A stretch of 20,000 bases of DNA from IMG/VR virus record IMGVR_UViG_3300011865_000032; one strand, written 5' to 3'. Position numbers and translations under genes: made by a program. Source of the stretch: an uncultured virus (IMG/VR IMGVR_UViG_3300011865_000032). Taxonomy: Duplodnaviria > Heunggongvirae > Uroviricota > Caudoviricetes. Of this stretch, positions 1 through 17,954 are shown one piece after another. The notes below the pieces were generated by a model. The model did no database searches, was not told the origin of the DNA, and saw only the letters and a program-made list of their open reading frames with translations. Numbering within the stretch: the stretch's first letter is position 1; each line of letters starts with the position of its first letter.

Positions 1-612
1 TTCATTTTTAACGATCATTATTATGGACTGAGTTTCTTAGAATCATTATTTGAAAATAATGAAGAGTTTATAAAATCATTGCAATATAATTTTATTTTTT
101 CTAATATTCAATCAATATCAATAAGTAAATCTGCGGTAGATGATATAGATAAAAATATAGATTTAATTACTTCTTTTATTAGTCAAAGGTTAGATAAAAT
201 AGATGATAAAGAACTCGCTTTATTGTTCTTAATTTCTTTTAATGATTTTCTAATGATATGTCCTTCTTTTAAACAGTTTAAACTTTCTTCTACTGATACA
301 GTTTATAACAAAGATCGGTATAATGAATATAAACCTATTTTATGGAATATGTCAGAAACTTGTAAAATTATTTTTTCTGATGACATGAAAAATATGGATA
401 TATTAAAACATATGCAAGTTTCAGATAATATTCAACATATGCTATTTGATTATTTAGAAGTGTTTAAACCACCATTTCTTGAAGGTATCAATATTAAAGA
501 AGCTTCATTAAAAATGAATATTATTGACATTTATTTTTTATATGAAAAAGATTTATTAGATAACACTTTTAAAGTGTACAATAAAAGTGTTAATAATAAA
601 AGAAGATTATAG
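1..612 (+). CDS. Hypothetical protein, 5'-truncated by the window edge; carries the shared C-terminal tail (EKDLLDNTFKVYNKSVNNKRRL)
   Basis: Frame 1 is open from base 1 to TAG at 610-612, so the TTG at 79 is probably not the real start. Confidence 0.75.
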   Translation, partial: FIFNDHYYGLSFLESLFENNEEFIKSLQYNFIFSNIQSISISKSAVDDIDKNIDLITSFISQRLDKIDDKELALLFLISFNDFLMICPSFKQFKLSSTDTVYNKDRYNEYKPILWNMSETCKIIFSDDMKNMDILKHMQVSDNIQHMLFDYLEVFKPPFLEGINIKEASLKMNIIDIYFLYEKDLLDNTFKVYNKSVNNKRRL

Positions 613-613
613 A

Positions 614-871
614 TTAATTTCCACGGCGAGCTATATATCCTTCTGGTTCGCTGTCCATATCTTTTAGTTTTAAAAATTCAGAATCTGCTAATGCCCTGTC
701 TTCAAAGCAAAAACGTTTTTCAAACCCCCATAAATTAACATTTGTATAAATTGCACGAGTGAATAATAAGTTTCCTATACCTACAATACTATTGTCTTCC
801 AGTTGGCGAACAGAAATAAATTCCCACATTTCTTTAATTTTTAAAAGTTCTTCTTCATTAAGTTTAGACAT
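614..871 (-). CDS. Small conserved phage-type hypothetical protein
   Basis: 85-aa ORF with its own promoter. The motif LLFTRAI...WGFEKRFCFE...EPEGY resembles a hypothetical family I recall from phages. Confidence 0.75.
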   Translation of the reverse strand: MSKLNEEELLKIKEMWEFISVRQLEDNSIVGIGNLLFTRAIYTNVNLWGFEKRFCFEDRALADSEFLKLKDMDSEPEGYIARRGN

Positions 872-904
872 GGTTTTATCTCATCTTCTGTTAACATTTT
901 ATCT

Positions 905-933
905 ACTATAGCTTAACTAAAGAGGTTACACAA
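905..933 (-). promoter_or_regulatory. Sigma70-type promoter for 614..871
   Basis: Minus strand reads TTGTGT-17bp-TATAGT. Confidence 0.55.
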
Positions 934-938
934 CTTAT

Positions 939-997
939 TTTTGTTCATGAAAATTATATGTTCATGATTCGTGAACACTGAAAATCCGTGAACAAAA
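939..997. promoter_or_regulatory. Symmetric four-box inverted/direct repeat (putative protein-binding site)
   Basis: TGTTCATGA at 942-950 and 959-967; inverted copies TCGTGAACA at 969-977 and CCGTGAACA at 986-994. Period 17 bp on each side, dyad centre at 968. Confidence 0.6.
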
Positions 998-1020
998 CAC
1001 TTTAATTTAAATCTATTTTT

Positions 1021-1029
1021 TGCTATAAT
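1021..1029 (+). promoter_or_regulatory. Extended -10 promoter element for the ferredoxin gene
   Basis: TGCTATAAT about 30 nt upstream of the ATG, followed by a GAGAGG/AGG RBS. Confidence 0.6.
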
Positions 1030-1060
1030 GAGATATTGTCAATAGAGAGGTTTAGGTATT

Positions 1061-1309
1061 ATGAGAGTATTAAACATTTTAAAATCAGAGTTTGAAAATT
1101 CTCAACACACTTCTATTTTAAACTATTTAATTGCTAATAAAATTGTTGTTAATTTCCATTGTGCTGATGGCTATTGTGGGATGTGTCATTCAGTGTTAAA
1201 ATCAGGTAAAATTCAAACAAGTGATAAAGCTATTGGTTATACTCCAAAAAATGAATTTTTGATTTGCTGTTCAAAACCTGTTAGTGATATTACAATCGAA
1301 TTATATTAA
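1061..1309 (+). CDS. yfaE: 2Fe-2S ferredoxin, YfaE-like (class Ia ribonucleotide reductase maintenance ferredoxin)
   Basis: HCADGYCGMC...LICCSKPVSDITIEL matches the plant-type C-x4-C-x2-C...C motif and aligns by eye with E. coli YfaE (QCREGYCGSC...LPCCCRAKGDIEIEM). Confidence 0.85.
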   Translation: MRVLNILKSEFENSQHTSILNYLIANKIVVNFHCADGYCGMCHSVLKSGKIQTSDKAIGYTPKNEFLICCSKPVSDITIELY

Positions 1310-1317
1310 GGAATTTT

Positions 1318-1659
1318 ATGGCAAGCGAACCAGTAAATAAGCGTTTTACTATTTTCAATAAACATAAATTTATCTTTAGGTTTTTGAAAAAAACAGAATT
1401 TAAAGATGACTCTATTTTTTCTATTGAAAATTCTGAAAAGAAAGAAAAATATGAAATTATTCTTTTTATAGGACATATTTTCTATAAAAAACATAACACT
1501 CATACTTTTTCTTTCATTTTTAAACGATTTTCCTTGACATATTACAACCATGAAAAACTTAAACCGATTCAAAATGATAAAACTTTTATCAATAAAGATA
1601 GAATTATATCACCTATGGTATTTTTCAAAAAAAAGATGCCTGAAACAAAAAAACTCTAG
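1318..1659 (+). CDS. Hypothetical basic protein, probably co-transcribed with the ferredoxin
   Basis: 113-aa ORF with an AAGGA RBS directly after the ferredoxin stop. Confidence 0.55.
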   Translation: MASEPVNKRFTIFNKHKFIFRFLKKTEFKDDSIFSIENSEKKEKYEIILFIGHIFYKKHNTHTFSFIFKRFSLTYYNHEKLKPIQNDKTFINKDRIISPMVFFKKKMPETKKL

Positions 1660-1685
1660 ACATTCTTCTTTTATCTTTATATAAT
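1657..1685 (+). promoter_or_regulatory. Sigma70-type promoter for the MazG-like gene
   Basis: TAGACA-17bp-TATAAT. Confidence 0.65.
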
Positions 1686-1715
1686 TATGACTCATTAATC
1701 AAAAGGAAATATGTT

Positions 1716-2372
1716 ATGAACTTGAACAAACTGCTGTCTTTTATCTTCACTACTTCACTCGAACTTAATCGTGTAAAAGACGATCCTTATCGCACAAATG
1801 CTTACATTTTTGAAAAAGTAGACGAAGAAGTTGGTGAAATGGCAACAGAACTTCTGATTCAGAAAAATAACTTCCTTAATCTTTCACCGGGTAAAGACGG
1901 TCTTGCTGGCGAAACAGTCGATGCTTTTGTCTCTATTGTTGATTTTTATTCAAATCAGCAAGTTGGCAAATGCAAACATGTTATTGCAAAAGAACTTATT
2001 GAAGCTCTGAACAACGAATATCAAACTACATTTGTTACGGTAGAAGATGTGTTTAATCATGCTTTTATTGCTTATGATGGCAAACTTGATTCCGAATCAG
2101 TTTTTAAAGGTTTGGTTGCTTTGAAAGGTGAAATTAATTGCCAGATGCATATTGATAAAGGCCTGAGCTATAAATTGCCAGAACCAGGCAAACTCGAAAA
2201 ACTGACGGTTCAGTTTATTGCTTTGAATATGTTCTATTATGAACTTATTTCTGATAAAACTACCGAATCAACTGTAGAAGACTTCTGCAATACCGTCTTT
2301 GTTAAGATGAACAAATGGCGTAAAACTCGTGGCTTTAAAGAAATTGATATTAATGCCTTCATGAATAACTAA
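1716..2372 (+). CDS. MazG-like all-alpha NTP pyrophosphohydrolase with an apparent second, degenerate copy of the domain
   Basis: EKVDEEVGEMA...GKDGLAGETVD fits the EExxE...ExxD metal-binding motif. AAAGGA RBS upstream. Confidence 0.7.
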   Translation: MNLNKLLSFIFTTSLELNRVKDDPYRTNAYIFEKVDEEVGEMATELLIQKNNFLNLSPGKDGLAGETVDAFVSIVDFYSNQQVGKCKHVIAKELIEALNNEYQTTFVTVEDVFNHAFIAYDGKLDSESVFKGLVALKGEINCQMHIDKGLSYKLPEPGKLEKLTVQFIALNMFYYELISDKTTESTVEDFCNTVFVKMNKWRKTRGFKEIDINAFMNN

Positions 2373-2383
2373 TACATTAAAAT

Positions 2384-2414
2384 AAAAAAGAGCAACTCCT
2401 GTTGCTCTTTTTTT
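2384..2414 (+). terminator. Intrinsic terminator (bidirectional form)
   Basis: AAAAAAGAGCAAC-TCCT-GTTGCTCTTTTTT. Confidence 0.85.
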
Positions 2415-2448
2415 ATATTTAATATTTCAAAAGGAGAGATATATAAAA

Positions 2449-4098
2449 ATGAAAAATAAACTCTCTATTATAGATAAATTTAAAGATTTATTAACTATAA
2501 ATAAAACATCACTAGAAGATAAAGTAAATCTTCAATTCATTAATTCTCTTTTAAAAGAATATCCTACTAATAGTTTAAACACATTTTCGTCTGCAGAAGA
2601 AAATGTTCAATATGATATTATACATAAAATAACCACTTTTTCTGACAACATTATTCTTAAACATCCAGAATGTCTTTTTTATCTAAATAGATATTTGAGA
2701 CATCAATTTTCTAATATGAGAACTTTTCTTAATAAAAAAAAATCTGTATATAAAGAAAATAAATTCTTAAATGAAAAATATGCTTATTATATTGAACTTT
2801 TATATAATAATGGATTAATAGAACCATTAAAATTACATATTAATGAACAACCACATTTTATTCATATATTTAATGAAATAAAAAATTTCAGTGTGAAAAA
2901 ATTGTGTTGTGACATTAATCTTTTAAATACACAAAAAAGAAAAAATAATGATTCTTTTAATACTTCTTCAAATAGTTTATACTTAGATTTATTATATAAA
3001 TTTAATCCTGAATTACACCTTCATTCTAACTCCACTTTTTGTAGTCTTTATATATCTAATCATAATTCCGAAAATTCACTTAATTCGGAAAATTTATCTC
3101 CTGTTATATTTAAAAATAAAGAAATATTTGAACACATCTTAAAGCAATGTGTTATACCTAAAAATGATTTATTTTTAAACATTTTTTTTAATAAAATGCT
3201 TTCTTTTTCTCAAGAAAAAATTATTAGTGAGGTTGAATTTAAAAATAATATTATTATAGCTAAACCTTTTATAGAAAATAATGAATTCTTTTTAAACAAT
3301 GTACGAAATTCTATTTTTCAACATATAAATTTAGAAGAACTAATAATATTAAATAATGAAACACCTAATTTTTACCAAGCTATTAAAGAAATAAATAACA
3401 TTTCTGTTTATAAAGAGCATATATATTGGGATAAATATGAAGATACTTTTAAATACTTTATTATGCAAGATTCTATTAATAATCAGAACACTACTAAAAA
3501 TATAGCTAATGTTTTTATTTTAAATGGAAATGAAGAACACTTATTATTTCTTTATAATATTTTAAAAAATAATGATACATTTATTCAATATTTAACTTCT
3601 TTATTTATTAATTCTGAAGAACATTGCTATAAAATGTCTCAAAGTACAATACAAAAAATTGGCAATAATATAAAAAATAAGATACCTTTTATTGAAAAAA
3701 TAATCAATAATGTAACAAATGAAGACATTATTTTGGATTTTTTAATTTCTTTTAATGAATTAAATTTAGTTTTTGCTTCTCCTGGTTTAGATTTAAACAA
3801 AGATCAAAATTACAAAGATTCCGATTCTGTCATTCACTGGATTTTTTCATCTTTTTGCAAAACTTTATTTTCAGTTGATTTTAAAAATTACAATATTTTT
3901 AATCAAATTAAAGAAAACTATACTTTTGAGAACCTTTTATTTAAATATATAAAAATAAATAAACCTGATTTTTTATCAGATATTGATTTTCAAAATACTA
4001 ATTTAAAGATGGAAGATATATCTAATTTATTTCAGAATAGATTGTTACAACAAACTTTTAAAATAGAAGAAAAGAAAAATAAAATTAAAAGATTATAA
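2449..4098 (+). CDS. Large N/K/I-rich hypothetical protein with the shared C-terminal tail (QNRLLQQTFKIEEKKNKIKRL)
   Basis: 549-aa ORF, AAGGAG RBS; no recognisable catalytic motif. Confidence 0.8.
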   Translation: MKNKLSIIDKFKDLLTINKTSLEDKVNLQFINSLLKEYPTNSLNTFSSAEENVQYDIIHKITTFSDNIILKHPECLFYLNRYLRHQFSNMRTFLNKKKSVYKENKFLNEKYAYYIELLYNNGLIEPLKLHINEQPHFIHIFNEIKNFSVKKLCCDINLLNTQKRKNNDSFNTSSNSLYLDLLYKFNPELHLHSNSTFCSLYISNHNSENSLNSENLSPVIFKNKEIFEHILKQCVIPKNDLFLNIFFNKMLSFSQEKIISEVEFKNNIIIAKPFIENNEFFLNNVRNSIFQHINLEELIILNNETPNFYQAIKEINNISVYKEHIYWDKYEDTFKYFIMQDSINNQNTTKNIANVFILNGNEEHLLFLYNILKNNDTFIQYLTSLFINSEEHCYKMSQSTIQKIGNNIKNKIPFIEKIINNVTNEDIILDFLISFNELNLVFASPGLDLNKDQNYKDSDSVIHWIFSSFCKTLFSVDFKNYNIFNQIKENYTFENLLFKYIKINKPDFLSDIDFQNTNLKMEDISNLFQNRLLQQTFKIEEKKNKIKRL

Positions 4099-4106
4099 AT
4101 ATTTCT

Positions 4107-5648
4107 TTATTTTTCACGGAAAAATAAATTCCTTTTAAATATAGTATTAGGATGATCGTCGCATAAATCTTCTGATCGTTTAAACCATACTGAAACATGT
4201 TCTTGTTGTTCTTTTCTTAATTTAGGATTATTTATAATGTAAATATTATAATATTGATTTTCTATTATGAGTTTCGCTGTTTTACTTTCACAAATAGATT
4301 CCCAGTCATATAAATCATCTACATTATTTAAATCTTTATAAATGTTTTTTACTCCATGACTTTCTAAATCATATCGTGAGAACCAATTATAATATGGTAA
4401 TTGAATGTATTTTAAAAAAGGTAAATTTTCTAAAATTTTAACACTATTGGGTGCGAAGTCCGGGTGACTATTTAGATATACTAAATCTTTTTCGTATAAT
4501 ATTTTATTTGAATTTATGTCTTTTGATATCCATCCTGATAACATAGAGTTATATTCATACTCATATTTATTTAAATTTCCATATTGATAACTTACTGAAA
4601 CAAAAAACAAATAAGTTAAACATGTTAAAGCACCACTCACTCTTATTATGTTTTTATTTTTTAAAGCATATAAATAAATAAAAGCTACAATCATATTTAC
4701 AACAATAAATACTCTTGGTCTTGCAAAAACTTCATCCAACAGTATAAAAGGACCCCATATAGATAAGAAAATTAATGGTATTGCTAAAACATAGATTAAT
4801 TTATTTGTTATTTTTTTTTCTTTTACTAAACCTATTAAAAAATTATAAATAAAAATAAAACATATTATTCCAAAAAATATCAAAAAAGGAGTAAACCAGA
4901 TACCATATAAAAATTCAGATATATAACTTATAGCTGTTTTCAAATTACTGAACAAATCTTTTATTTCTATTAACTTAGTTCTATTTGTTGATGCATTAGT
5001 TAATCTAAATAATGTAAAATAAATAATTAAAGATGCTAAATATAATAAAATCCCTTTCATTGTTTCTTTAAATTTTGTCTCTTCATTTTTCCATTTCATC
5101 AAAATATTCATAAATACTAATGCTATAAATAATTGAATGGCTGGTTGGAAAAAAGCAATTGCTATTGTTAATATTAATATTGTTGATAAATAATTTTTCC
5201 AGCTACTACATTTTATAATGTAAGCCATTAATACCAAAGCAACTGCTGATGACATAGTTAAACTATCATATTGATACGAAAGATTCTGAAGAAAAAGAGG
5301 AAATAAAATTAAAAAGCTTAGTGCTATATGATTAAATATGTTTTTTTCTTTTATTAAATGTTTCGTGAATAAATATAAACCTGAGCTTAATATAAAAAGA
5401 CTTAACAAAAATGTTAGTGGAGCTATATTTGTTAAACCACCCATATTAAATGATAATATGTGCATTAATGTATTAGCAGAACCTCGACCTAATGTTTCCC
5501 ATGCATTACCTTTTAATAATCTCACATAATCATCTCTGAAAGGTAAATTATTATTTATTAGGGGATAAATAAAAATGCCCAATAATAAAAAGAAAGCAAA
5601 GAAGCTCTCTTTTCCTGATAAATCTTTATTTAACCATTGCTTGATCAT
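4107..5648 (-). CDS. GtrII-family (Glucos_trans_II-like, GT-C fold) polytopic membrane glucosyltransferase
   Basis: FRDDYVR...W...GR, PLFLQNLSYQYDSLTM and FFQ motifs typical of serotype-converting GtrII proteins; many TM helices plus a C-terminal soluble domain. Start placed at MIKQWL (5648); the ORF track starts at 5711. Confidence 0.75.
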   Translation of the reverse strand: MIKQWLNKDLSGKESFFAFFLLLGIFIYPLINNNLPFRDDYVRLLKGNAWETLGRGSANTLMHILSFNMGGLTNIAPLTFLLSLFILSSGLYLFTKHLIKEKNIFNHIALSFLILFPLFLQNLSYQYDSLTMSSAVALVLMAYIIKCSSWKNYLSTILILTIAIAFFQPAIQLFIALVFMNILMKWKNEETKFKETMKGILLYLASLIIYFTLFRLTNASTNRTKLIEIKDLFSNLKTAISYISEFLYGIWFTPFLIFFGIICFIFIYNFLIGLVKEKKITNKLIYVLAIPLIFLSIWGPFILLDEVFARPRVFIVVNMIVAFIYLYALKNKNIIRVSGALTCLTYLFFVSVSYQYGNLNKYEYEYNSMLSGWISKDINSNKILYEKDLVYLNSHPDFAPNSVKILENLPFLKYIQLPYYNWFSRYDLESHGVKNIYKDLNNVDDLYDWESICESKTAKLIIENQYYNIYIINNPKLRKEQQEHVSVWFKRSEDLCDDHPNTIFKRNLFFREK

Positions 5649-5751
5649 ATTTATATATTTCCAGAAATTAGTTTCCAAAAACATAGTGAAATATTTTATA
5701 ACGATAGTCAATAAAGTAAAAAATTTTATTTAAAGTAAATTAATCATCTGA

Positions 5752-6618
5752 TTAAATCCGTTTTTTTATTACATTTTGTTTTATATCAGTGATAATATTA
5801 GATATTTCTTCTTTTTCTATCTCGCTTTTCACATGTTCTAATAAATTTTTTGGTAATGTCATGTTAAAATAATTTTTACCTGAATTGGTTTTAATCTCAA
5901 TGTTTACATTCTTTCTTACTAAAAATTTAAATAATTCCATACTTTCTGTATTGATTTCTCTTGTTGATAAATATTGACTTTCCATATTCAAAAGTAGTGT
6001 ATGTAAAACATTATATCCAGCTTTTAATGGTATTCTTCTTTCTAATTCTTCAACAGCAATAGAATTACTTGTTTCTTTAAAAAGTTTATAATGTTCCGAT
6101 TCAATTAAAGATATTAAATTCTCTGCTTTTATTTTATCTTTTTCGTTTTTAACAATAAATTCTAACAAATCTAATCTATTTTTTAAACATAAATTCGACC
6201 ATAGATTCATACTGTTATTATATGAAATACTTACAAAATCATGATTTCTTAAATTATATAATTCTTGAAATATTTTTAATTCATTGCTATCTGGATTTTC
6301 TTTTAATTCCATAAAAGAATTTAACATCGAATTAAAAAAAATAGTCAAATCATTCTTTTTTTCTAAATCTTTTTTCAGTGAAACAAAAAGATTATAGTTT
6401 TTATTTTTTATTGCATTTTGCAAATAACCAATAGCATCAATTTTTGTAGTATCATAATTAATTTTATTAGCCAAAAATTTGAATACTCTTTCATCATTAT
6501 TAAAACAAGCATAATATAACAGGTTATTCTCTTTAATATTTTCTTGTGATAATTCTTTTTTTTCTAAATCAGATAATGAGCAATAAGTCACGCTACTTTT
6601 TAAAAATTTTGTATCCAT
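5752..6618 (-). CDS. Ankyrin-repeat-like protein with the shared C-terminal tail (EKEEISNIITDIKQNVIKKRI)
   Basis: Degenerate ANK repeats: LLYYACFNNDERVFKFL, YLQNAIKNKNYNLF, and GYNVLH...LFKFLVRKNVNIEIKTNSGKN. AAGGA RBS before MDTKF at 6618. Confidence 0.65.
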   Translation of the reverse strand: MDTKFLKSSVTYCSLSDLEKKELSQENIKENNLLYYACFNNDERVFKFLANKINYDTTKIDAIGYLQNAIKNKNYNLFVSLKKDLEKKNDLTIFFNSMLNSFMELKENPDSNELKIFQELYNLRNHDFVSISYNNSMNLWSNLCLKNRLDLLEFIVKNEKDKIKAENLISLIESEHYKLFKETSNSIAVEELERRIPLKAGYNVLHTLLLNMESQYLSTREINTESMELFKFLVRKNVNIEIKTNSGKNYFNMTLPKNLLEHVKSEIEKEEISNIITDIKQNVIKKRI

Positions 6619-6694
6619 ATTTCTTCCTTTATTCTCTCTAACTATTATCATTCATCTTTCCTTGTGTGACAATATCTGATCATATTAAAATATC

Positions 6695-6723
6695 TAGACT
6701 TCCGTATGTTTTTTCGCTATACT
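6695..6723 (+). promoter_or_regulatory. Sigma70-type promoter
   Basis: TAGACT-17bp-TATACT upstream of 6751. Confidence 0.6.
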
Positions 6724-6750
6724 GTAATCATAAATTAAAGAGAGGTTATT

Positions 6751-6975
6751 ATGAAAAGTTTATCTATTCTTTCAACTTCCGAAGTCAGAGATATTTTTCT
6801 TACTCTGCTTTGCCTTTCTCTCAATATTTTGATGGCTTATGGAATGCACAATTTTAGTCAATCCTATGCTTCTAATAATCCATACCTTAAAGTTACTTTA
6901 ATTGTAGTTCTTAGCTTTGCATTTTTATTAAACATTTACTGTTTTAATAAAATTTTTGGAAAAAAATCCAATTAA
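6751..6975 (+). CDS. Small membrane protein with two TM helices
   Basis: GAGAGG RBS, two hydrophobic segments, basic C-terminus; flanked by a promoter and a terminator. Confidence 0.7.
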   Translation: MKSLSILSTSEVRDIFLTLLCLSLNILMAYGMHNFSQSYASNNPYLKVTLIVVLSFAFLLNIYCFNKIFGKKSN

Positions 6976-6978
6976 AAG

Positions 6979-7005
6979 AAAAAAGCCCTTTAGGGCTTTT
7001 TTTTT
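6979..7005. terminator. Bidirectional intrinsic terminator
   Basis: AAAAAAGCCCT-TT-AGGGCTTTTTTTTT between convergent genes. Confidence 0.85.
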
Positions 7006-7050
7006 ACCCTTCCTCCCCGTAAAGCCTCGTCCTAAGGGCAGGGAGTATCA
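7006..7050. mobile_element. Possible IS200/IS605-family terminal hairpin remnant (no transposase)
   Basis: GC-rich island TTCCTCCCCGTAAAGCCTCGTCCTAAGGGCAGGGAGTATCA, resembling the AAGCCyCGyCCTwwAGGGCGGGGAG..TCA subterminal hairpin of IS605/tnpB elements. Confidence 0.4.
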
Positions 7051-7671
7051 CAATCTGTTTCTTTTCTTTATATTAATATTTGGTGCTACTTTCATTACAT
7101 TTTTAATTTCTTGTTGATCTGATTCAATTAATTTGTTTTTGTAATGATCTACATAAGCATCAATATCTTTTATTGTTATGTTTTTAGATTTCTCAAATTC
7201 CATATATGTTTCGGCTATTTTTATCATCATAATAAATATGGTTAGAATAACACCTGTTGTTATGATTTTGTCTAACATATTAGATATAACAGGCATATTA
7301 AAATAAACAGCAAATTGTTGATAACTAATTATCATTAATGATAATGCATAATAACCAAAAAAAACAAACACATGAAAACCCGATTTTGAGAAAGAATTAG
7401 ATATATTTTCATACAAAAGAACAGATGATAATTCTTCTGTATTAGAGTTATTAAAAACTCTTCTTAATTTTCTAATAATAAGTGTTGTAGTCAAGACTTC
7501 TACTATTTTCATAACGAAGAACACTAATAAAGAAAAAATTGAAACAATAATTACTTTATTAAAATTAGAATGGCATAATTGACCCACAATTGCCGTAAAT
7601 ATAGTCATTAATATTAATGTTTTCATCAGCTTATTATCATTTTTTTCTACAAAATAAACTAAATTATTCAT
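7048..7671 (-). CDS. Membrane protein (about 4 TM) with the shared C-terminal tail (ESDQQEIKNVMKVAPNINIKKRNRL)
   Basis: 207-aa ORF, GAGGA RBS, four hydrophobic segments. Confidence 0.75.
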   Translation of the reverse strand: MNNLVYFVEKNDNKLMKTLILMTIFTAIVGQLCHSNFNKVIIVSIFSLLVFFVMKIVEVLTTTLIIRKLRRVFNNSNTEELSSVLLYENISNSFSKSGFHVFVFFGYYALSLMIISYQQFAVYFNMPVISNMLDKIITTGVILTIFIMMIKIAETYMEFEKSKNITIKDIDAYVDHYKNKLIESDQQEIKNVMKVAPNINIKKRNRL

Positions 7672-7757
7672 AATGGTTCCTCATTGTATTTTCACTGATT
7701 TTAGCATGTTTTTTACAGAAAAACAGCATTATTTTTTATAATAATTTCATATTTTTC

Positions 7758-7786
7758 TTGTGCTTTTTTCATATATTTGCTACATT
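7758..7786 (+). promoter_or_regulatory. Sigma70-type promoter with extended -10
   Basis: TTGTGC-17bp-(TGC)TACATT. Confidence 0.5.
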
Positions 7787-7812
7787 GATTATATCACTCA
7801 AAAAGGCGAAAA

Positions 7813-8430
7813 ATGAAAATGAACACAATTAACCCTCTTTCTATTATTCTTGATACTGATGGTGTAATCCTTGATTTTGATAAAGGTTACATTTCAGCAG
7901 GACAATATTTATTTGATAAAGAAATCAAAGAAGTTAAAAAATCATGGTCTCTTACTGAAAAATATAATCTTACGGTAGAAGAAGATAATAAAATTTGGGA
8001 TTATTTTGCAAAAGGCGGTTGGAAAAATTTACCACTTATCCCTGGTGCAGATGAAGCATTCCATGAATTGAAATCTCTTGGTTTCTCTATCCATGTAGTT
8101 ACAGGTATTCGTCCTGAACATTCAGATATGAGATTACAAAATTTTTCTAAATATGATTTAACACCAGATAGTATTGATTGTGTCGGTCATGGTAGTAGTT
8201 CAAAAACTTTTGCCATACAAAAATATAAACCAATTGCTCTTGTAGATGACAGACTTCAGCACATTAATGAAAATTTGTATGTCCCTAATCGTTGTTGGAT
8301 TGACTTAAATGATGATCAAAAAGAAAATAAACTTTGCACTAAAAATGCAACTTTTATTTCGGCAACCTTAAAGCATTTTGTGGATGAATGTAAAAATTTA
8401 TTGGTTGAACCATTCAAAACTGCCATTTAA
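7813..8430 (+). CDS. HAD-superfamily hydrolase, 5'(3')-deoxyribonucleotidase-like
   Basis: Motif I IILDTDGVILDF, motif II HVVTG, motif III K (SSKT), motif IV LVDDR. Confidence 0.85.
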   Translation: MKMNTINPLSIILDTDGVILDFDKGYISAGQYLFDKEIKEVKKSWSLTEKYNLTVEEDNKIWDYFAKGGWKNLPLIPGADEAFHELKSLGFSIHVVTGIRPEHSDMRLQNFSKYDLTPDSIDCVGHGSSSKTFAIQKYKPIALVDDRLQHINENLYVPNRCWIDLNDDQKENKLCTKNATFISATLKHFVDECKNLLVEPFKTAI

Positions 8431-8445
8431 TTTATAAAGCCTAAT

Positions 8446-8473
8446 AAAAAAAGACCTGCGAAGGTCTTTTTTT
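8446..8473. terminator. Bidirectional intrinsic terminator
   Basis: AAAAAAAGACCT-GCGA-AGGTCTTTTTTT between convergent genes. Confidence 0.85.
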
Positions 8474-8903
8474 ATTCTTCATCTTCATCTTCATCTTCAT
8501 CGGGATTATCTGTTTCTTGATTTTCTAATTCAAATAGTTCAAAAGAACATATTAATTCTTCTTGATTTAAATTAAATTGTAATTCTCGCATCAAATGCAG
8601 GAAACTTTTATTTTGTATTTCCTGATCATAAATTTCCAGATCTAATATTTTAAAAAAGAGTTGCAGAGCTAATAAATATTTAATTTGCTTTTCTTTATGT
8701 TCTAAATATATTTTGCTACTTAAAATATCATGAGATTTTAAACCAGATATATTTTCTGCTTTTTCAATTATATATTGGTGTTTATTTAACATTTCAAAAA
8801 AATCTTTAACATTCAGACTTTCATGAATAAATTCAATCAATGTATCTATATATAATTTGTTATACCTTTCATCTTTCAAATCTTCTAGTTGGTAATATCT
8901 CAT
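8472..8903 (-). CDS. Hypothetical protein with an acidic C-terminal tail (PDEDEDEDEE)
   Basis: 143-aa ORF with an AGGAG RBS. Confidence 0.75.
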   Translation of the reverse strand: MRYYQLEDLKDERYNKLYIDTLIEFIHESLNVKDFFEMLNKHQYIIEKAENISGLKSHDILSSKIYLEHKEKQIKYLLALQLFFKILDLEIYDQEIQNKSFLHLMRELQFNLNQEELICSFELFELENQETDNPDEDEDEDEE

Positions 8904-9029
8904 ATTAAAACTCCTGTTGAATCTTTTTATCTATTATATCTCTTTTATTTTTTTATGCACATTTTTCTTTAAAAACAGAGCAAAATATGATATCCTTTTG
9001 AAAGTTACAAATCAATATATGAGAATTTT

Positions 9030-9434
9030 ATGAATAATCAAAATCAATTTTTATCTTTCAAATATTTTTTAACCAACTTAAAATATTCCCAAAATATTCC
9101 TTTTTTTATTGATTTAAAAAGAAACATTATTAAATTTTATGCTACTTCTTTTTCATTATCTCTTTGTGTTTTAATCTTGGTTTCAACGATAACTTATTTT
9201 TTTAATAGTAAAATTTTTTATGTTCCTCTCATTACAGGAATGGTTTCTTACATATTTATGGCTGGATATTTTTTAATAACATTTCATAAAATATTTTTAA
9301 AGCGTCTTAATAATTATTTATCAACTGAACAAAAATATGAAGAATTTAATGTTTATCATGAAGATAAAATTATTAAAGAAACTTTAACTGTATCTCCCAC
9401 AAACAATAAGAAAACAATGCGTAAAAGACTTTAA
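9030..9434 (+). CDS. Two-TM membrane protein with the shared C-terminal tail (EDKIIKETLTVSPTNNKKTMRKRL)
   Basis: 134-aa ORF with two hydrophobic helices. Confidence 0.7.
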   Translation: MNNQNQFLSFKYFLTNLKYSQNIPFFIDLKRNIIKFYATSFSLSLCVLILVSTITYFFNSKIFYVPLITGMVSYIFMAGYFLITFHKIFLKRLNNYLSTEQKYEEFNVYHEDKIIKETLTVSPTNNKKTMRKRL

Positions 9435-9448
9435 ATCAGGAGAATATC

Positions 9449-10156
9449 ATGAGTACTCGTGTTCGCAAGCAAATTGGTTATTTTTTAGATATAGATAAAA
9501 TAAATTCTGTATTAGTAGACAATTATGAAGATATTTTATCAGAGGAAAATGCTATAAATAAAAGTAATATAGTAAAGTATTGGGAATTGTGGAGACAGGA
9601 ATATACCAAAAATAATGTATACAATTATCAAATAAGAGAATTTTTAAAAGACCCAAAAATAGACTCTATAAATACTTTTGTTAATGAAATTCTTCATTTA
9701 GATAATTTTAAAGGGATTTTATTGTTAACTCCCAAATTTAAAGAAGCAACACGACATAATAATTTGATTGATTCTTATGAAAATAATGAAATGAATTTTA
9801 TTTGTAAAAAAATTTACGAACCTATTTATCCTGAGATGAGTTATGTTTGTGTTAAAGAACCTCTTTTAACGGCTGATTCTTTAGAATATTTAGAAGAATA
9901 CTGTGACTTAAAAGGAATTAAAGTAGGAGAAGCATATACTCCTGATATATTGCATTCTCTTGGTATTCAAAATGAAATACATAAAGAACCTCTTGAGCTT
10001 AGTTATCCAAAAGGAGATGGAATAAAATATTTTCATCCTTATATAAATCCATTAGTTTACTTTATTTTGCAAGATGCTGAGTTATTAAAAAAAGATATCT
10101 CTTATCTTGATTTTATCATTCATGTAGAACCTGCTATTATTACTTCATGGGGCTAA
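9449..10156 (+). CDS. Hypothetical protein
   Basis: 235-aa ORF, AGGAG RBS, followed by a terminator. Confidence 0.8.
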   Translation: MSTRVRKQIGYFLDIDKINSVLVDNYEDILSEENAINKSNIVKYWELWRQEYTKNNVYNYQIREFLKDPKIDSINTFVNEILHLDNFKGILLLTPKFKEATRHNNLIDSYENNEMNFICKKIYEPIYPEMSYVCVKEPLLTADSLEYLEEYCDLKGIKVGEAYTPDILHSLGIQNEIHKEPLELSYPKGDGIKYFHPYINPLVYFILQDAELLKKDISYLDFIIHVEPAIITSWG

Positions 10157-10166
10157 TTTTTTAATT

Positions 10167-10198
10167 AAAAAAAAGACCTTTGGAAGGTCTTTTTTTTT
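10167..10198. terminator. Bidirectional intrinsic terminator
   Basis: A8-GACCTT-TGG-AAGGTC-T9 between convergent genes. Confidence 0.85.
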
Positions 10199-10206
10199 AT
10201 AATTAT

Positions 10207-10437
10207 TTAGTCAGCTTCATCTGCTTTTTGGAATCCGTCCCATGCACTTGGAGTTCTTTCCTGTTTAACTTCTGTTTTTACTGTTGGTGAAGATTTTTGA
10301 TCAACAAATTCTTGATACGATCTTGTTGACTGAACATTTTCATCACCATTACCACCTTCACTATTAGCAGCATGAGCTATTCCACCTAATGATAAACTTA
10401 AAGCTACTGCGGTTGCCATTAATGTTATTTTTTTCAT
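10207..10437 (-). CDS. Small secreted protein (Sec signal peptide, AHA cleavage site)
   Basis: MKK + hydrophobic core + AHA; AAGGAG RBS; paralog of 10486..10632. Confidence 0.8.
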   Translation of the reverse strand: MKKITLMATAVALSLSLGGIAHAANSEGGNGDENVQSTRSYQEFVDQKSSPTVKTEVKQERTPSAWDGFQKADEAD

Positions 10438-10485
10438 AATATTCTCCTTAATAAAATTAATTATAATATTTTACAATTCCATCTC

Positions 10486-10632
10486 TTATTTATTATTTAT
10501 AAAATCCTGATATGTCTTAGATTTCATAACATTATCTTGACCATTTCCACCACCGTGAGAATCGGAAGCATTAGCCATACTCATTGATAAACCAAATACC
10601 ATTACAGATAAAATCATTGCTATTTTTTTCAT
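10486..10632 (-). CDS. 48-aa secreted peptide precursor, missed by the ORF track (MKKIAMILSVMVFGLSMSMANASDSHGGGNGQDNVMKSKTYQDFINNK)
   Basis: Translated by hand. AAAGGAG RBS, signal peptide ending ANA, and a GGNG-x-x-NV-x-x-x-x-[ST]-YQ-[DE]-F motif shared with the downstream gene. Confidence 0.8.
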   Translation of the reverse strand: MKKIAMILSVMVFGLSMSMANASDSHGGGNGQDNVMKSKTYQDFINNK

Positions 10633-10653
10633 TGTTATTCTCCTTTGTTATTT

Positions 10654-10675
10654 ATTTGTGATGTAAATCACATTA
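10654..10675. promoter_or_regulatory. CRP-type binding site (perfect core)
   Basis: ATT-TGTGA-TGTAAA-TCACA-TTA matches TGTGA-N6-TCACA. Confidence 0.6.
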
Positions 10676-10682
10676 CATAGAC

Positions 10683-10711
10683 AATATAGAATATTATTTT
10701 TTATTTTTCAA
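10683..10711 (-). promoter_or_regulatory. Candidate sigma70 promoter for the secreted-peptide pair
   Basis: Minus strand reads TTGAAA-17bp-TATATT. The AT-rich context makes chance matches possible. Confidence 0.45.
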
Positions 10712-10968
10712 TCGCATTTCCATGGATAATATTGAAAATCTCTTTCAATATTTTTGTATATATTATAATCTATTGATTTGTAAGAATAATAATTTATAAT
10801 ATTAATGATTTATTAAGTTTAATAATAAAAAATACACATTTTTTCCATAATTTAATCAGCTATTTTCAATAACATATTTTTCTCATTGACCACTCTCCAT
10901 CCTTCAGATCTGGGAGCATAATAATCCGATTTCTATTTATAATTTTATGCTTTTATCATAAAAAAAGC

Positions 10969-10997
10969 TTGCAATACCACTAAGGTTTTGTTAATAT
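10969..10997 (+). promoter_or_regulatory. Sigma70-type promoter with extended -10
   Basis: TTGCAA-17bp-(TGT)TAATAT. Confidence 0.6.
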
Positions 10998-11049
10998 TAC
11001 TCCATAGCGATAAGACATATACTTAACAATAAACAAAAGGTGAAACAAA

Positions 11050-11196
11050 ATGCAAAGCTCCGCTAGTGGTAAAGTTGAAAAATTCAGTTCTTCTAAAAAG
11101 CAGTCTCGTATGGCTGGGGGTATGAAGGACGATTCACGTAAACGCAATAAAACCACACGTGGTAAAGATCGATACGATTTTACTGACGAGCAATAA
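11050..11196 (+). CDS. 48-aa basic protein, T7 gp1.1-like, missed by the ORF track (MQSSASGKVEKFSSSKKQSRMAGGMKDDSRKRNKTTRGKDRYDFTDEQ)
   Basis: Translated by hand. AAGGTGA RBS, own promoter and terminator, and a close paralog at 11361..11504. Confidence 0.85.
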   Translation: MQSSASGKVEKFSSSKKQSRMAGGMKDDSRKRNKTTRGKDRYDFTDEQ

Positions 11197-11197
11197 T

Positions 11198-11222
11198 AAA
11201 AAGCCCTCCGGGGCTTTTTTTT
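11198..11222 (+). terminator. Intrinsic terminator
   Basis: AAAAAGCCCTCCGGGGCTTTTTTT, identical core to 11509..11533. Confidence 0.85.
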
Positions 11223-11281
11223 ATTTTTTAACAATTGGTTAGTGGTTTTAAAAAATTAAATAATTTTCTAATAAAAAACTC

Positions 11282-11310
11282 TTGCTCTTATTTTTCATTC
11301 CTGGTACTAT
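11282..11310 (+). promoter_or_regulatory. Sigma70-type promoter with extended -10
   Basis: TTGCTC-17bp-(TGG)TACTAT. Confidence 0.6.
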
Positions 11311-11360
11311 GTAGTTATTGAAACAGCACAATCTTTTATCCATAAAATAAGGTAATTATC

Positions 11361-11504
11361 ATGCAACATTCTTCTTCAGCTAAAGTTGTTAAATTTTCTT
11401 CTTCTAAAAAATCTTCTCGTATGGAAGGAAACATGAAAGAAGATAGTCGAAAACGTAATAAAGTTTCTCGTGGAAAGAATCGTTATTTTGAAGATCAAGA
11501 ATAA
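11361..11504 (+). CDS. 47-aa basic protein, paralog of 11050..11196, missed by the ORF track (MQHSSSAKVVKFSSSKKSSRMEGNMKEDSRKRNKVSRGKNRYFEDQE)
   Basis: Translated by hand. TAAGG RBS. Protein similarity is kept while many synonymous sites differ, which supports coding status. Confidence 0.85.
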   Translation: MQHSSSAKVVKFSSSKKSSRMEGNMKEDSRKRNKVSRGKNRYFEDQE

Positions 11505-11508
11505 AAAT

Positions 11509-11533
11509 AAAAAGCCCTCCGGGGCTTTTTTTT
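11509..11533 (+). terminator. Intrinsic terminator
   Basis: AAAAAGCCCTCCGGGGCTTTTTTTT. Confidence 0.85.
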
Positions 11534-11534
11534 G

Positions 11535-11563
11535 TTGTGTTCAGTAGTTAATTTTGATATAGT
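11535..11563 (+). promoter_or_regulatory. Sigma70-type promoter with extended -10
   Basis: TTGTGT-17bp-(TGA)TATAGT. Confidence 0.6.
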
Positions 11564-11590
11564 TTCATAAACTCAATAAGGAATTATGCT

Positions 11591-11905
11591 ATGAAACATA
11601 AACTCTTTTTAATTCCGGTTATTGCCATTTCTTTGCTGCAAACAGGTTGCCTGCCAAAAGCACTTTCAGATGAAGAAGTTGCAAAAAAAGTTGCTGCATG
11701 TAAAGCAAAACAGCAAAAACCTTGGTATACCTTTGCAAAACAAGGTGATAAAAATAGTGGTGTTTTGTATGTAGAATGTGTTGACATGAATTACCCTGAA
11801 AGTGAAAAAAATAAAGAAAGTGATTCTTCGTTGTTTGATGATGACACTCCACTTTCTGCAACAGGTCAGCCAAGTCTCTCTGGTTTACCTGGTGGACCTT
11901 TCTAA
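11591..11905 (+). CDS. Putative lipoprotein
   Basis: MKHK + hydrophobic core + LQTGC lipobox-like site; TAAGGA RBS; two further Cys; low-complexity tail. Confidence 0.7.
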   Translation: MKHKLFLIPVIAISLLQTGCLPKALSDEEVAKKVAACKAKQQKPWYTFAKQGDKNSGVLYVECVDMNYPESEKNKESDSSLFDDDTPLSATGQPSLSGLPGGPF

Positions 11906-11941
11906 TTAATTATATTTAACTAATCATGGAAATAAAATAAA

Positions 11942-12256
11942 ATGACTACTACTCATTATCGTGACTTTGGGTTTAAAATTTTTATTGCTAAAATGCTGGA
12001 AAGCAGTGGTGTAGAAACATTTTACTGCTATGTTCAACATCCAGACCATAAAAAAGAACCAGGTCTGCTATCTTGTGAAGGTAAAGGTATTTTGAATACC
12101 TATAATGATACGGACATTGATAAAGTGCGATATATGGCAAGTATGTGGGCTAACTTCTTTGGTATGCCATTTGATAGCATTATTGATGACTTTACCGAAT
12201 CTCATCCAGAAGATTCATTTAATAAAGAATTCAGGATGGAAGAATTTTCAGATTAA
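11942..12256 (+). CDS. Hypothetical protein
   Basis: 104-aa ORF followed by a terminator. Confidence 0.7.
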   Translation: MTTTHYRDFGFKIFIAKMLESSGVETFYCYVQHPDHKKEPGLLSCEGKGILNTYNDTDIDKVRYMASMWANFFGMPFDSIIDDFTESHPEDSFNKEFRMEEFSD

Positions 12257-12273
12257 TACTTCAATTTTATTTT

Positions 12274-12296
12274 AGCCTCCTTAAGGAGGCTTTTTT
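12274..12296 (+). terminator. Intrinsic terminator
   Basis: AGCCTCC-TTAA-GGAGGCTTTTTT. Confidence 0.8.
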
Positions 12297-12366
12297 ATAC
12301 ATTAAAATTTTATCTTAAGATTTCTACAACTTAAAGTATAAAGTTTTTTTCTTTTATGGAATTAAT

Positions 12367-12398
12367 AAAAAAGCCCAGAATCGCTTCTGAGCTTTTTT
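12367..12398 (-). terminator. Intrinsic terminator for 12413..12610
   Basis: AAAAAAGCCCAGAA-TCGC-TTCTGAGCTTTTTT (gives a G-U pair in the minus-strand RNA). Confidence 0.75.
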
Positions 12399-12412
12399 AT
12401 CACTTATAAATA

Positions 12413-12610
12413 TTAACTTTCAATTAGTTCCAGTTCTCTACGACCACGAACTGGTTTATTAAGTTTTTTATTATCTACTTTTCCTTTCATAATTTTTCGT
12501 TTGCGAGAGAAAAAATTATTTTCTTTTTCGTTAAGGAAGTTTGCCATACGAGAGAATTGTTTGCCGTTTTTCATCAGACCATCTTCATTAAAAACAGTAT
12601 TCATTTTCAT
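12413..12610 (-). CDS. Small basic protein with a KLNKPVRG motif (gp1.1-like; distant relative of the 11050/11361 pair)
   Basis: AAGGAG RBS; own promoter and terminator. Confidence 0.75.
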   Translation of the reverse strand: MKMNTVFNEDGLMKNGKQFSRMANFLNEKENNFFSRKRKIMKGKVDNKKLNKPVRGRRELELIES

Positions 12611-12658
12611 AAACTTCTCCTTTTAAATAACACTTAACTACTTGCTTTCTATGTCTAA

Positions 12659-12687
12659 ACTATAGCACCAGATACATTTCGGAGCAA
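12659..12687 (-). promoter_or_regulatory. Sigma70-type promoter with extended -10
   Basis: Minus strand reads TTGCTC-17bp-(TGC)TATAGT. Confidence 0.6.
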
Positions 12688-12733
12688 TCTTTTTTTTCTT
12701 TAAATTAGTTTGATTGCTTCCTTTTTAATCATG

Positions 12734-13438
12734 TTATACTTTACGTTTTTTAAATGAATAATTATCAAAACCTTTACTATTTCTTTTATCAATATCTGAA
12801 ATTTCAATAATTTCTTTTTGCTCGATACCAAGTACTCCACCAATATACATTTCAATTTCTTGATATACTATGGAAGCTTCCATTTTAAATGATTTTGTTA
12901 AATCTTTTAATACAGGGTAAAGCATTAAACCATTATCTACTGTTTTAAAATATAAAGCTCCTGCTTGACGGAATACATCAGGATCTATTTCTTTATCTAC
13001 ACAATTTTTTAAAATATCTTCCCATTCTTTAATTTTTCTTTTTGAAGCACCAGCATAGCCATAACTTAAATGTCTATTTTCTATTTCAGTTTTAAGTTCA
13101 TCAAAATTGCTATAATAGGTTTCATTTGAACGTACAGTTACTCTTTTTCTTTTACCATATTGTTCTTCTGTTATTATGTCTTTAGATTCATAAATAACAA
13201 ATAATGGATATACTTTTCCACAAAAATATAAAAATTCTATTGCTGCGGAACAATCATGATCATCTGAATAATTTCTTCTTTTATAACGGCTTGTTGCAAG
13301 ACTAATCATTTTATAGGGAAGCCCATTTTTTATTTCTTTATAATCTATAATGTTAGTCTCACGTTTTAACATAATAGTATTATCATAAAAAATAGCGGCA
13401 GAATCGTAATAATCATGAAATTTTGAAATTATTTTCAT
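12734..13438 (-). CDS. Conserved phage-type hypothetical protein
   Basis: MKIISKFHDYYD...FCGKVYP...YQEIEMY...GFD..SFKK resembles a hypothetical family I recall from phages; AGGAG RBS. Confidence 0.8.
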   Translation of the reverse strand: MKIISKFHDYYDSAAIFYDNTIMLKRETNIIDYKEIKNGLPYKMISLATSRYKRRNYSDDHDCSAAIEFLYFCGKVYPLFVIYESKDIITEEQYGKRKRVTVRSNETYYSNFDELKTEIENRHLSYGYAGASKRKIKEWEDILKNCVDKEIDPDVFRQAGALYFKTVDNGLMLYPVLKDLTKSFKMEASIVYQEIEMYIGGVLGIEQKEIIEISDIDKRNSKGFDNYSFKKRKV

Positions 13439-13578
13439 ACAACTCCTGTTTTAATTAAATAAATAGAAACTTATTTTCTAATTAATATTTCAGTTTATAT
13501 TTGTAAAAATGTTTTGTCAAATATTTTTTATTTTATATACATTTTATTATATCTATAATGAAAAAATTCTTATTTATA

Positions 13579-13618
13579 TATACAAAAAAGGACACTTAAA
13601 AGTGTCCTTTTTTGTATA
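13579..13618 (-). terminator. Long perfect hairpin; terminator for 13631..14329
   Basis: TATACAAAAAAGGACACT-TAAA-AGTGTCCTTTTTTGTATA (18-bp stem). Confidence 0.8.
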
Positions 13619-13630
13619 CTTGTTAACTAT

Positions 13631-14329
13631 TTAAATTTTGTTTCTTTGAATTACTTTATTTTCTTCCATATTTGAATTTGAAGATATTCTATTTTTTAAT
13701 TTAGTCATTAAATTTTCTTTTTCTGGTATCTTCATTTCAACATAACTTTTGGTTTCATCTTCCAGCATTTGAGTTTTAGGATCATTTACTATTTCAATAA
13801 ATTTATACATAGCTTTTAATGCTTTATGTGCTTTTTCAGATACCAAATCGTCATTTTTTTCATTTCTTTCCATTTTACCATTATTCCATAATTTTCTAAC
13901 TTCAGTATAATTATTTATAGCTTGATTAACATCTGTTATATTTTTTGAAGTTAATAAAGCCTTACCCTTAGCTTCATTACTCTTTTCTTTATAAAAATCA
14001 CCTGCATTATAATCATGAGAAAATACACTTTTTAAAACGACACCAACAGATACTAAAGCAAGTGTCATACCTAGTGCTTTTAAACTACTAATGTCAGTAT
14101 TATTTGATAATGTTTGGAACAAAAGAAAAGATCCCAAACCTCCTAAACTATTAACAAAAGTTTCTTTTCTTTCTGCCATCACAATATTTTTTCTTTTATC
14201 TTCTAATATTTGAGCAGAATTATTATAGAAAGATTCTCTATTTTCCTCTTGTTTTAATGATTCTTTAAACTTTTTTTCAAATTCTAACCCACCTAATAGA
14301 GTAGTAAACCGTCCTTCTTTATTTTTCAT
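13631..14329 (-). CDS. Membrane protein with a hydrophobic hairpin and a basic C-terminal tail (EENKVIQRNKI)
   Basis: AGGAGG RBS before MKNKEG at 14329 (the ORF track starts at 14368); two hydrophobic segments. Confidence 0.75.
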   Translation of the reverse strand: MKNKEGRFTTLLGGLEFEKKFKESLKQEENRESFYNNSAQILEDKRKNIVMAERKETFVNSLGGLGSFLLFQTLSNNTDISSLKALGMTLALVSVGVVLKSVFSHDYNAGDFYKEKSNEAKGKALLTSKNITDVNQAINNYTEVRKLWNNGKMERNEKNDDLVSEKAHKALKAMYKFIEIVNDPKTQMLEDETKSYVEMKIPEKENLMTKLKNRISSNSNMEENKVIQRNKI

Positions 14330-14563
14330 GAAAACCTCCTTAATATTTCGTCCTTTTAAAAAAATCATTTTACGTTTTACCGATACTTAATATTATTATT
14401 GTAATCAATTTTAGAATTTTATCAAGATTTTACTTCTTTTTTGCATAAAATAATTTATAAATAATTATCTACACATAATGATATTTAAAAATTATAAACT
14501 TGATTTTTATCACATTTATTACATAATAATAATGTAATTAACAATTTTTTATAGGATATTCCG

Positions 14564-16534: not shown

Positions 16535-16552
16535 TAAATTAAATGAGTATAA

Positions 16553-16578: not shown

Positions 16579-16580
16579 CT

Positions 16581-17904: not shown

Positions 17905-17954
17905 CATGCACTAAAATACAAAAATACATTTAAAACTAAATAATGGAGAATATA

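Follow-up and report, generated by a model that had tools for sequence, protein, structure and literature searches.

A two-part C-terminal tail on orphan proteins of a clade 1 pMEGA fragment as a candidate substrate signal for type IVB secretion

Introduction

Known cases of protein transfer by conjugation machines involve a handful of proteins. Signals for type IV secretion are typically C-terminal and basic or hydrophobic (PMC10025392), and in Legionella about 300 substrates are recruited via DotM and IcmSW (PMC5802825). A type IVB system can also act on bacteria (PMC9519443). Here, we analyzed a stretch of 20,000 nucleotides (hereafter the window), which forms the last 20 kb of an IMG/VR virus record (IMGVR_UViG_3300011865_000032; 77,192 bases, GC content 26.3%). 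Many otherwise mostly unrelated proteins of this record share a C-terminal tail. Judged from gene order and composition, the record is a piece of an Enterobacteriaceae megaplasmid of the pMEGA group, and the tail is probably a substrate signal of the Dot/Icm-like type IVB system of that plasmid.

The closest described elements are the pMEGAs, megaplasmids of 1.3-1.6 Mb from Enterobacteriaceae, whose clade 1 comprises pMEGA1, 4, 19 and 20 (Guitor et al., bioRxiv 10.1101/2025.09.30.679422). As reported in the text and tables of that preprint, the pMEGAs encode a Dot/Icm system and two relaxases, the machine being classed as Dot/Icm with a few VirB-like matches. DotL, DotM, DotN and IcmW are listed once each in all 20 pMEGAs, clade 2 included, and in pMEGA4 the genes for Dot/Icm secretion and coupling proteins lie at open reading frames (ORFs) 20-70, outside the fragment studied here. 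The complete pMEGA genomes are described as having no phage structural genes. In these plasmids of 1.4-1.6 Mb, about 80% of the genes have no assigned function, and pMEGA4 has more than 300 alpha-solenoid genes 'of undefined function', mostly of families missing from clade 2, whose products the authors suggested are perhaps secreted effectors.

A two-part C-terminal tail shared by orphan proteins

An end consisting of Arg followed by Leu or Ile (R-L/I) was found on 25 of the 84 ORFs of at least 70 amino acids on the whole 77-kb contig, where 0.36 would be expected from internal dipeptides (binomial p 7e-39). Resampling of the proteins' own last 15 residues gave a mean of 0.74 such ends and a maximum of 6 in 20,000 rounds. 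When ORFs of at least 100 amino acids were considered, the counts were 5 of 20 in the window and 25 of 74 in the whole contig. For comparison with DNA from elsewhere, we examined 120 AT-rich viral loci, which had been selected by a tail-like DNA pattern; R-L/I ends were present on 8 of their 1,040 ORFs, and on 5 of 375 in the loci with GC below 28%. The first-pass annotation of this DNA had stated that its proposal would fall if the motif were no more frequent than a Lys/Ile-rich composition predicts; such an artefact is ruled out by the dipeptide expectation and resampling together with the outside loci.

The conserved part extends beyond the last two residues. Lys occupies position -4 in 20 of the 25 tailed proteins of the contig and Lys or Asn position -3 in 17, and the final residue is Leu in 18 and Ile in 7. 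Acidic residues disappear from the last five positions, and the last ten contain on average 3.6 Lys/Arg and 0.4 Asp/Glu (1.8 Lys/Arg in untailed proteins). Further upstream, a helix motif ([ED]xxx[LIM]xxx[LIFMV] at positions -30..-14) was present in 28 of 33 tailed versus 9 of 48 untailed proteins (Fisher p 3e-9) and in 15% of internal windows; the 33 comprise the 25 from the contig and 8 from a related metagenome contig (L133, see below), all selected by their last two residues only. Asp and Glu at positions -26..-16 averaged 2.1 in tailed and 1.7 in untailed proteins, with Lys intermixed. The tail is thus a two-part C-terminal peptide, in which an acidic-hydrophobic helix is followed by a polar linker and a K-x-R-L/I end. 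Its codons vary, with five in use for Arg and six for Leu/Ile, and each of the three stops occurs. Such variety implies that it is the peptide that is conserved, with selection acting on it and not on a DNA repeat, and a DNA repeat as the origin of the tail is ruled out.

All six C-termini that the first-pass annotation had quoted from the window were found in place, and five of them end in R-L/I (coordinates of tails include the stop codon). The first belongs to a 557-amino-acid all-helical protein, the 3' part of whose gene occupies 1..612 on the plus strand (the gene starts at G000:C1:56131, 1,061 bases upstream of the window) and which corresponds by gene order to pMEGA4 ORF 990. Its tail (544..612) leads from an EKDLL helix through a linker to NKRRL. 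The second (4033..4098, ending KIKRL) is carried by a 549-amino-acid protein at 2449..4098 (plus strand; ORF 995 of pMEGA4 by gene order, placed in subfamily 0113 like ORF 990). On the minus strand, a 299-amino-acid protein at 5752..6651, which corresponds by gene order to ORF 997 ('possibly alpha solenoid'), has a tail with EKEEI and a terminal IKKRI (5752..5817), and a 207-amino-acid protein at 7048..7671, with three hydrophobic segments above the threshold used, ends in KKRNRL (tail 7048..7119). The fifth is a 134-amino-acid protein with two hydrophobic segments (9030..9434, plus strand), whose tail (9360..9434) contains EDKII and ends with MRKRL. The sixth, a 245-amino-acid protein at 13631..14368 on the minus strand, ends in QRNKI as described; with Lys instead of Arg at -2 and without the helix motif, it is a doubtful member. 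Two further ends are borderline and lack the fixed Arg: TKKL of a 113-amino-acid ORF at 1318-1659 of the window, and KPKI of the oligoribonuclease at G000:C1:20060-20704.

When 82 proteins were scanned against Pfam, none of the 23 with a non-ankyrin match carried the tail and all four ankyrin proteins did (Fisher p 4e-5). Enzymes, pilins, lipoproteins and efflux proteins are all among the 23, which bears out the earlier observation that no recognizable enzyme here is tailed, and the tailed proteins are orphan helical proteins, ankyrin proteins or small membrane proteins. The claim that the tailed bodies are unrelated holds for most of them: BLASTP among 26 bodies detected five related pairs, one of which is formed by the protein ending at 612 and the product of 2449..4098, paralogs with 32% identity over 528 amino acids. 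An ankyrin-like body had also been named among those of the tailed proteins; the product of 5752..6651 has no Pfam match, ankyrin included, at E<=0.001. The PADLOC matches were four ankyrin proteins, all to one candidate-system model, which we took as repeat similarity.

Conservation among homologs, which the first-pass annotation had made a touchstone of its proposal, was observed: the tail is retained in all six homologs that are 32-92% identical to the first paralog. In one cluster at 90% identity it was present in 14 of 15 among the members listed, the exception being a fragment of 352 amino acids. An AlphaFold model of the 557-amino-acid protein (from an alignment of eight sequences) is all-helical, with a mean predicted local distance difference test score (pLDDT) of 79. 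For this one protein, the last predicted helix (residues 528-545) contains the motif and residues 547-557 have pLDDT below 50, so that a final helix followed by a disordered end is predicted. A Foldseek search with the model gave no match at E<=0.001 and weak HEAT/ARM matches only, and the ESM Atlas returned unnamed clusters only, below 0.9.

The record is a fragment of a clade 1 pMEGA

The contig is collinear with pMEGA4 ORFs 942-1015, sharing 17 anchor genes in the same order: RNase H, Rap1a, WGR, alarmone hydrolase, oligoribonuclease, radical SAM, AlaRS, TROVE, AcrB, AcrA, PurA, vWA, kinase, ferredoxin, GtrII, nucleotidase and TatD. Those in the window include a GtrII-family membrane glucosyltransferase (4107..5711, minus strand; ORF 996) and a TatD nuclease (17943..18761, plus strand; ORF 1015), both untailed. 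TnpB was dropped as an anchor, as its position differs in pMEGA4. AcrB has 3,117 bp in both the contig and pMEGA4 and is alike over the first 400 amino acids, and AcrA shows 2 differences in 377 residues (both compared by eye). The GC content of 26.3% is close to that of clade 1 (25.7-26.1%; Guitor et al., Table S7) and below that of clade 2 (about 29.4%). On the grounds of the anchors, the near-identity of AcrAB and the GC content, we identify the virus record as a piece of a clade 1 pMEGA megaplasmid.

The contig and pMEGA4 also have paralog pairs in common (954/955, 973/974 and 990/995). Among 18 solenoid-labelled pMEGA4 rows covered within ORFs 938-1015 (the 96x range in part), 17 fall on tailed genes, the exception being GtrII; this mapping follows gene order and not sequence, with ORF 948 the least certain. 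On this mapping, the tagged genes are largely the unexplained alpha-solenoids of Guitor et al.

The first-pass annotation had offered loading into a virion as one role for the tail. A signal by which a jumbo phage packages or ejects proteins would agree with the filing of the contig as a virus in IMG/VR. None of the 82 contig proteins has a structural PHROG match, though, no capsid, portal or terminase gene was found, and the contig matches a complete circular plasmid for which no phage genes are reported (Guitor et al.), so that a virion signal is scarcely credible. Two other virus records of IMG/VR (G001 and G002) likewise resemble megaplasmid pieces, and two of the three records are rated more than 90% complete. 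Among the 106 proteins of at least 230 amino acids in G002, Pfam detected neither a capsid nor a terminase protein; PilV, MutS and a chemoreceptor are encoded there. For PilV, the best plasmid match was a chromosomal piece and was set aside.

Besides the possible source, near-identical DNA was present in 13 DNA sequencing runs from seven studies, including four isolate-type assemblies of 7-9 million letters (runs X20-X24, with a small share of words, were left out). The runs with the element are from soil, root, biofilm and isolate samples without an evident eukaryotic host. The RNA runs consist of contigs only and are uninformative on expression. No match was found in a DNA search of 5,426 complete E. 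coli genomes; a DNA search of PLSDB returned tRNA matches only and a scan of GTDB one 937-bp contig only. In IMG/VR, no useful close relatives came up in scans for which PurA, the alignment of the paralogs, TnpB (5' part) or a DotM candidate served as query.

Relatives with the same tag or a different tag

An untailed gene for a 234-amino-acid protein (12734..13438, minus strand) was used as a marker to search for relatives. All nine of its plasmid homologs are on Pseudomonas and Vibrio megaplasmids of 0.6-1.2 Mb. The marker of L133, a 192-kb metagenome contig with a GC content of 29%, is 37% identical, and 8 of 17 ORFs in the part of this contig that was covered have R-L/I ends; L133 is thus a further lineage that uses the same tag.

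A different tag was found in pMPPla107 (NZ_CP031226.1), a 972-kb conjugative Pseudomonas plasmid, of which 830 kb were covered. Here, 118 of 773 ORFs of at least 120 amino acids end in D-L-G-L (0.05 expected), or 135 ORFs when close variants are included. These ends also follow a helix and have R-D at -11/-10, the pattern being R-D-x-x-F/L/M-G/A-x-D-L-G-L. The tagged proteins form 67 families, and none of the 69 representatives scanned has a Pfam match. Their genes begin at about 174 kb (174-830 kb within the part covered), with none in the first 170 kb, and about 174 kb is the edge of the cargo region, which is largely losable in the laboratory according to an unpublished remark in Smith et al. 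(PMC6482414). One pair of homologs differs by a C-terminal extension ending in E-L-G-L, as a bolt-on tag would. The plasmid encodes DotI, DotN and a DotM-like gene; the first candidates for DotL and DotM, at 74-80 kb, were rejected for lack of family support. A second class of ends in pMPPla107, P-S-P or P-E-P, occurs on 13 ORFs (e.g. L216:18954-21305), and P-A-P and P-S-P ends were also seen in samples from Methylorubrum and Acetobacter.

We found no published description of either the R-L/I or the D-L-G-L tag, with most subscription papers outside the search, and no paper combining 'megaplasmid' and 'DLGL'. The string 'c-termin' is absent from the main texts of Guitor et al. and Smith et al. 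(PMC6482414), and 'translocation signal' from three supplements of Guitor et al., in which 'C-terminal' has 41 matches (the two inspected are annotation text). The pMEGA element and C-terminal type IV signals in general are already known; these two tags are undescribed in the literature searched.

The tail as a candidate signal for type IVB secretion

In our view, the tail probably serves to address proteins as substrates to the Dot/Icm-like type IVB system of the plasmid. This reading is built on the motif, its distribution and conservation, and the identity of the replicon, with the coupling complex taken from the tables of Guitor et al. The first-pass annotation had already pointed to type IV secretion. 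This suggestion has gained strong circumstantial support, because the clade is reported to have a full Dot/Icm machine with its coupling complex, and because pMPPla107, a second type IVB megaplasmid, carries a mass tag of its own.

The signals of Legionella and Coxiella Dot/Icm substrates are similar in that they are C-terminal, span about 25 residues, consist of a helix and then a flexible end, and are borne by helical, ankyrin and membrane proteins that are unrelated and number in the hundreds; a coupling complex of the same type is listed for the pMEGAs by Guitor et al. By the broad description of a type IVB signal as lying within the last 30 or so residues, exposed and flexible, the tail agrees, with its motif at -30..-1 and an end predicted to be flexible in the one protein modelled. 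However, the Legionella and Coxiella genes are on the chromosome of an intracellular pathogen and those described here on a conjugative plasmid. Substrates of VirB/VirD4 systems (VirF and VirE2 of Agrobacterium, the C-terminus of MobA, the tail of Bartonella Bep proteins) have a terminal basic cluster without final acidic residues, as do the tails here with their Lys/Arg-rich last ten positions. On the other hand, the pMEGA tail is Lys-rich with one fixed Arg at -2 and has no BID domain, and the machine is classed as type IVB and not IVA. The kib system of Pseudomonas putida IsoF is also a type IVB system on mobile DNA and kills bacteria (PMC9519443). In the account given there, it has one effector-immunity pair with FxxxLxxxK on the immunity protein only, whereas here hundreds of proteins would be tagged and no paired immunity genes are evident.

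Several observations weigh against a substrate signal. The contig itself lacks the secretion genes, with no DotI found on its 77 kb. The DotM sequence of a pMEGA was not retrieved by the search, whose most AT-biased match was a Pseudoalteromonas protein. The E-block that the first-pass annotation named is a Glu-rich, acidic stretch of low pI close to the C-terminus, bound by DotM beside an IcmSW/LvgA route (PMC5802825). The tail does not agree with this: it is net basic, with a near-invariant terminal R-L/I and a far sharper consensus. In favour of a substrate signal, co-evolution with non-acidic tails has been proposed for DotM in other species (Meir et al., PMC5802825). Again on the negative side, clade 2 has the same machine according to the paper's tables, yet R-L/I ends were found on only 1 of 402 ORFs of G002 (342 kb), and also on 1 of 310 ORFs of G001 (259 kb); the ankyrin proteins of both have no tail. 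G002 probably belongs to clade 2, because its GC content is 29.6% and its marker cluster is found on contigs of up to 1.37 Mb. No sharp tag was apparent among 399 ORFs sampled over 440 kb of a type IVB megaplasmid from Vibrio, and the two RecD2-type helicase/relaxase-like proteins of pMPPla107 do not end in D-L-G-L. Mass tagging is thus a trait of some type IVB megaplasmid lineages and not of all. In 41-kb samples of Methylorubrum, Rhizobium and Acetobacter megaplasmids, we found no sharp tag, the samples being small and their high-GC ORF calls unreliable.

Some looser features were seen in these relatives. G001 and an 866-kb contig (L126) have GC contents of 38-39%, above both published clades, and G001 shares many genes with G002; they possibly represent a third pMEGA clade. 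A few proteins of G001 and G002 end in S/P-x-R-P-K/R-hydrophobic (SRPKL, KRPRI, NRPKI), with such ends recorded at L144:18005, L145:42, L165:405, L165:2331, L144:11988 and L156:62, possibly a small ancestral form of the tag. In the sample of the Vibrio megaplasmid (NZ_CP015514.1), about 15-20 proteins, judged by eye, have loose ends with a polar or acidic linker and S/T-L-x-L/M.

The plasmid's own ClpXP also counts against a substrate signal and leads to the alternative that the first-pass annotation had named, a shared degron, by which ClpXP, FtsH or a CtpB-like protease of the plasmid would ensure the rapid turnover of hundreds of cargo proteins that are costly or toxic. This idea is somewhat strengthened by the tables of Guitor et al., in which ClpX and ClpP are core to all 20 pMEGAs and which also include three FtsH proteins and a protease like CtpB. 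Moreover, clustered basic residues and a hydrophobic end are likewise found in the MuA degron RRKKAI (PMC8138137). The tails do have the basic cluster and terminal Leu or Ile, but position -2 is Arg and not Ala or another small non-polar residue as in MuA and ssrA. A disordered free C-terminus, as predicted by the model, would suit an unfoldase, whereas the conserved helix 20-25 residues upstream has no known counterpart in the MuA and ssrA degrons. In addition, clade 2 has the same proteases and the sampled fragment has no tail, and pMPPla107 has, on cargo of the same kind, an acidic tag that is chemically quite unlike this one. We therefore regard a degron, the main rival, as unlikely; if it were one, the tail would label proteins for proteolysis across the plasmid on an unusual scale.

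The presence of the tail on soluble and membrane proteins alike would also suit a peptide that docks in the donor cell, with no export, to a scaffold, a chaperone or a membrane site encoded by the plasmid. A free C-terminal tripeptide that is conserved and preceded by a flexible linker is what readers of the tetratricopeptide repeat or PDZ type bind. No reader was identified, and we know of no precedent for one intracellular dock serving hundreds of unrelated, fast-evolving proteins, whereas a secretion signal has one; docking seems to us an improbable explanation.

If the tail is a substrate signal, the coupling complex would bind the exposed basic end, and the helix might set the spacing of that end or bind an adaptor. 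We infer that the cargo would move through the same channel as the plasmid DNA. Its destination would most likely be the bacterial mating partner, given that the machine is conjugative and that Enterobacteriaceae exchange these plasmids. There, the solenoid and ankyrin binders could counter defences or reshape the new host. Eukaryotic grazers or hosts are possible recipients as well. A different role for eukaryotes would be that the tail is an address within the target cell, peroxisomal (x-R-L, like a type 1 peroxisomal targeting signal, PTS1) or nuclear (K-K/R-x-K/R), with export directed by another signal. The ends SRL, NRL and KRL do resemble the PTS1 pattern, but position -3 is mostly Lys or Asn and not the canonical small residue, and D-L-G-L matches neither pattern. 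Effectors that target eukaryotes often have ankyrin and solenoid folds (Guitor et al., discussion), although the element occurs in the runs mentioned above, in which no eukaryotic host is evident. Such an address is very improbable.

By the count of more than 300 solenoids in Guitor et al., the tagged set would amount to some hundreds of proteins per plasmid. More tentative is the general proposal that giant conjugative plasmids with type IVB systems equip hundreds of orphan proteins with a lineage-specific C-terminal postcode and inject them into bacteria during mating or contact, and at present we lean slightly away from it. Were it true, the full list of substrates could be read from sequence alone and the largest unannotated part of the plasmid would be explained. 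Hundreds of exported proteins would put the plasmid on the scale of Legionella and would bear on the origin of Dot/Icm effector secretion from I-type conjugation. A single sharp tag groups the unexplained genes of the pMEGAs into one class and makes the suggestion of secreted effectors directly testable. Sharp lineage-specific tags, one basic and one acidic, also offer a cleaner system than the degenerate Legionella signal in which to study substrate choice by the coupling complex.

Other features of the window

A GC-rich palindromic stretch at about 7010-7047, directly after the gene for the 207-amino-acid tailed protein, is where the contigs of two runs break or diverge, and it may be the end of an insertion sequence. 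Two tRNA genes, tRNA-Met(CAT) at 19695-19771 and tRNA-Leu(TAA) at 19909-19995, are on the minus strand. An untailed type IV prepilin (14564..16534, plus strand) has a long Ser-rich repeat region composed of Ser, Ala and Thr. This gene varies among samples: in the isolate runs X10 and X12, single contigs join 14347 to 16634 and the prepilin is missing, and run X4 has a form that is 108 bases shorter.

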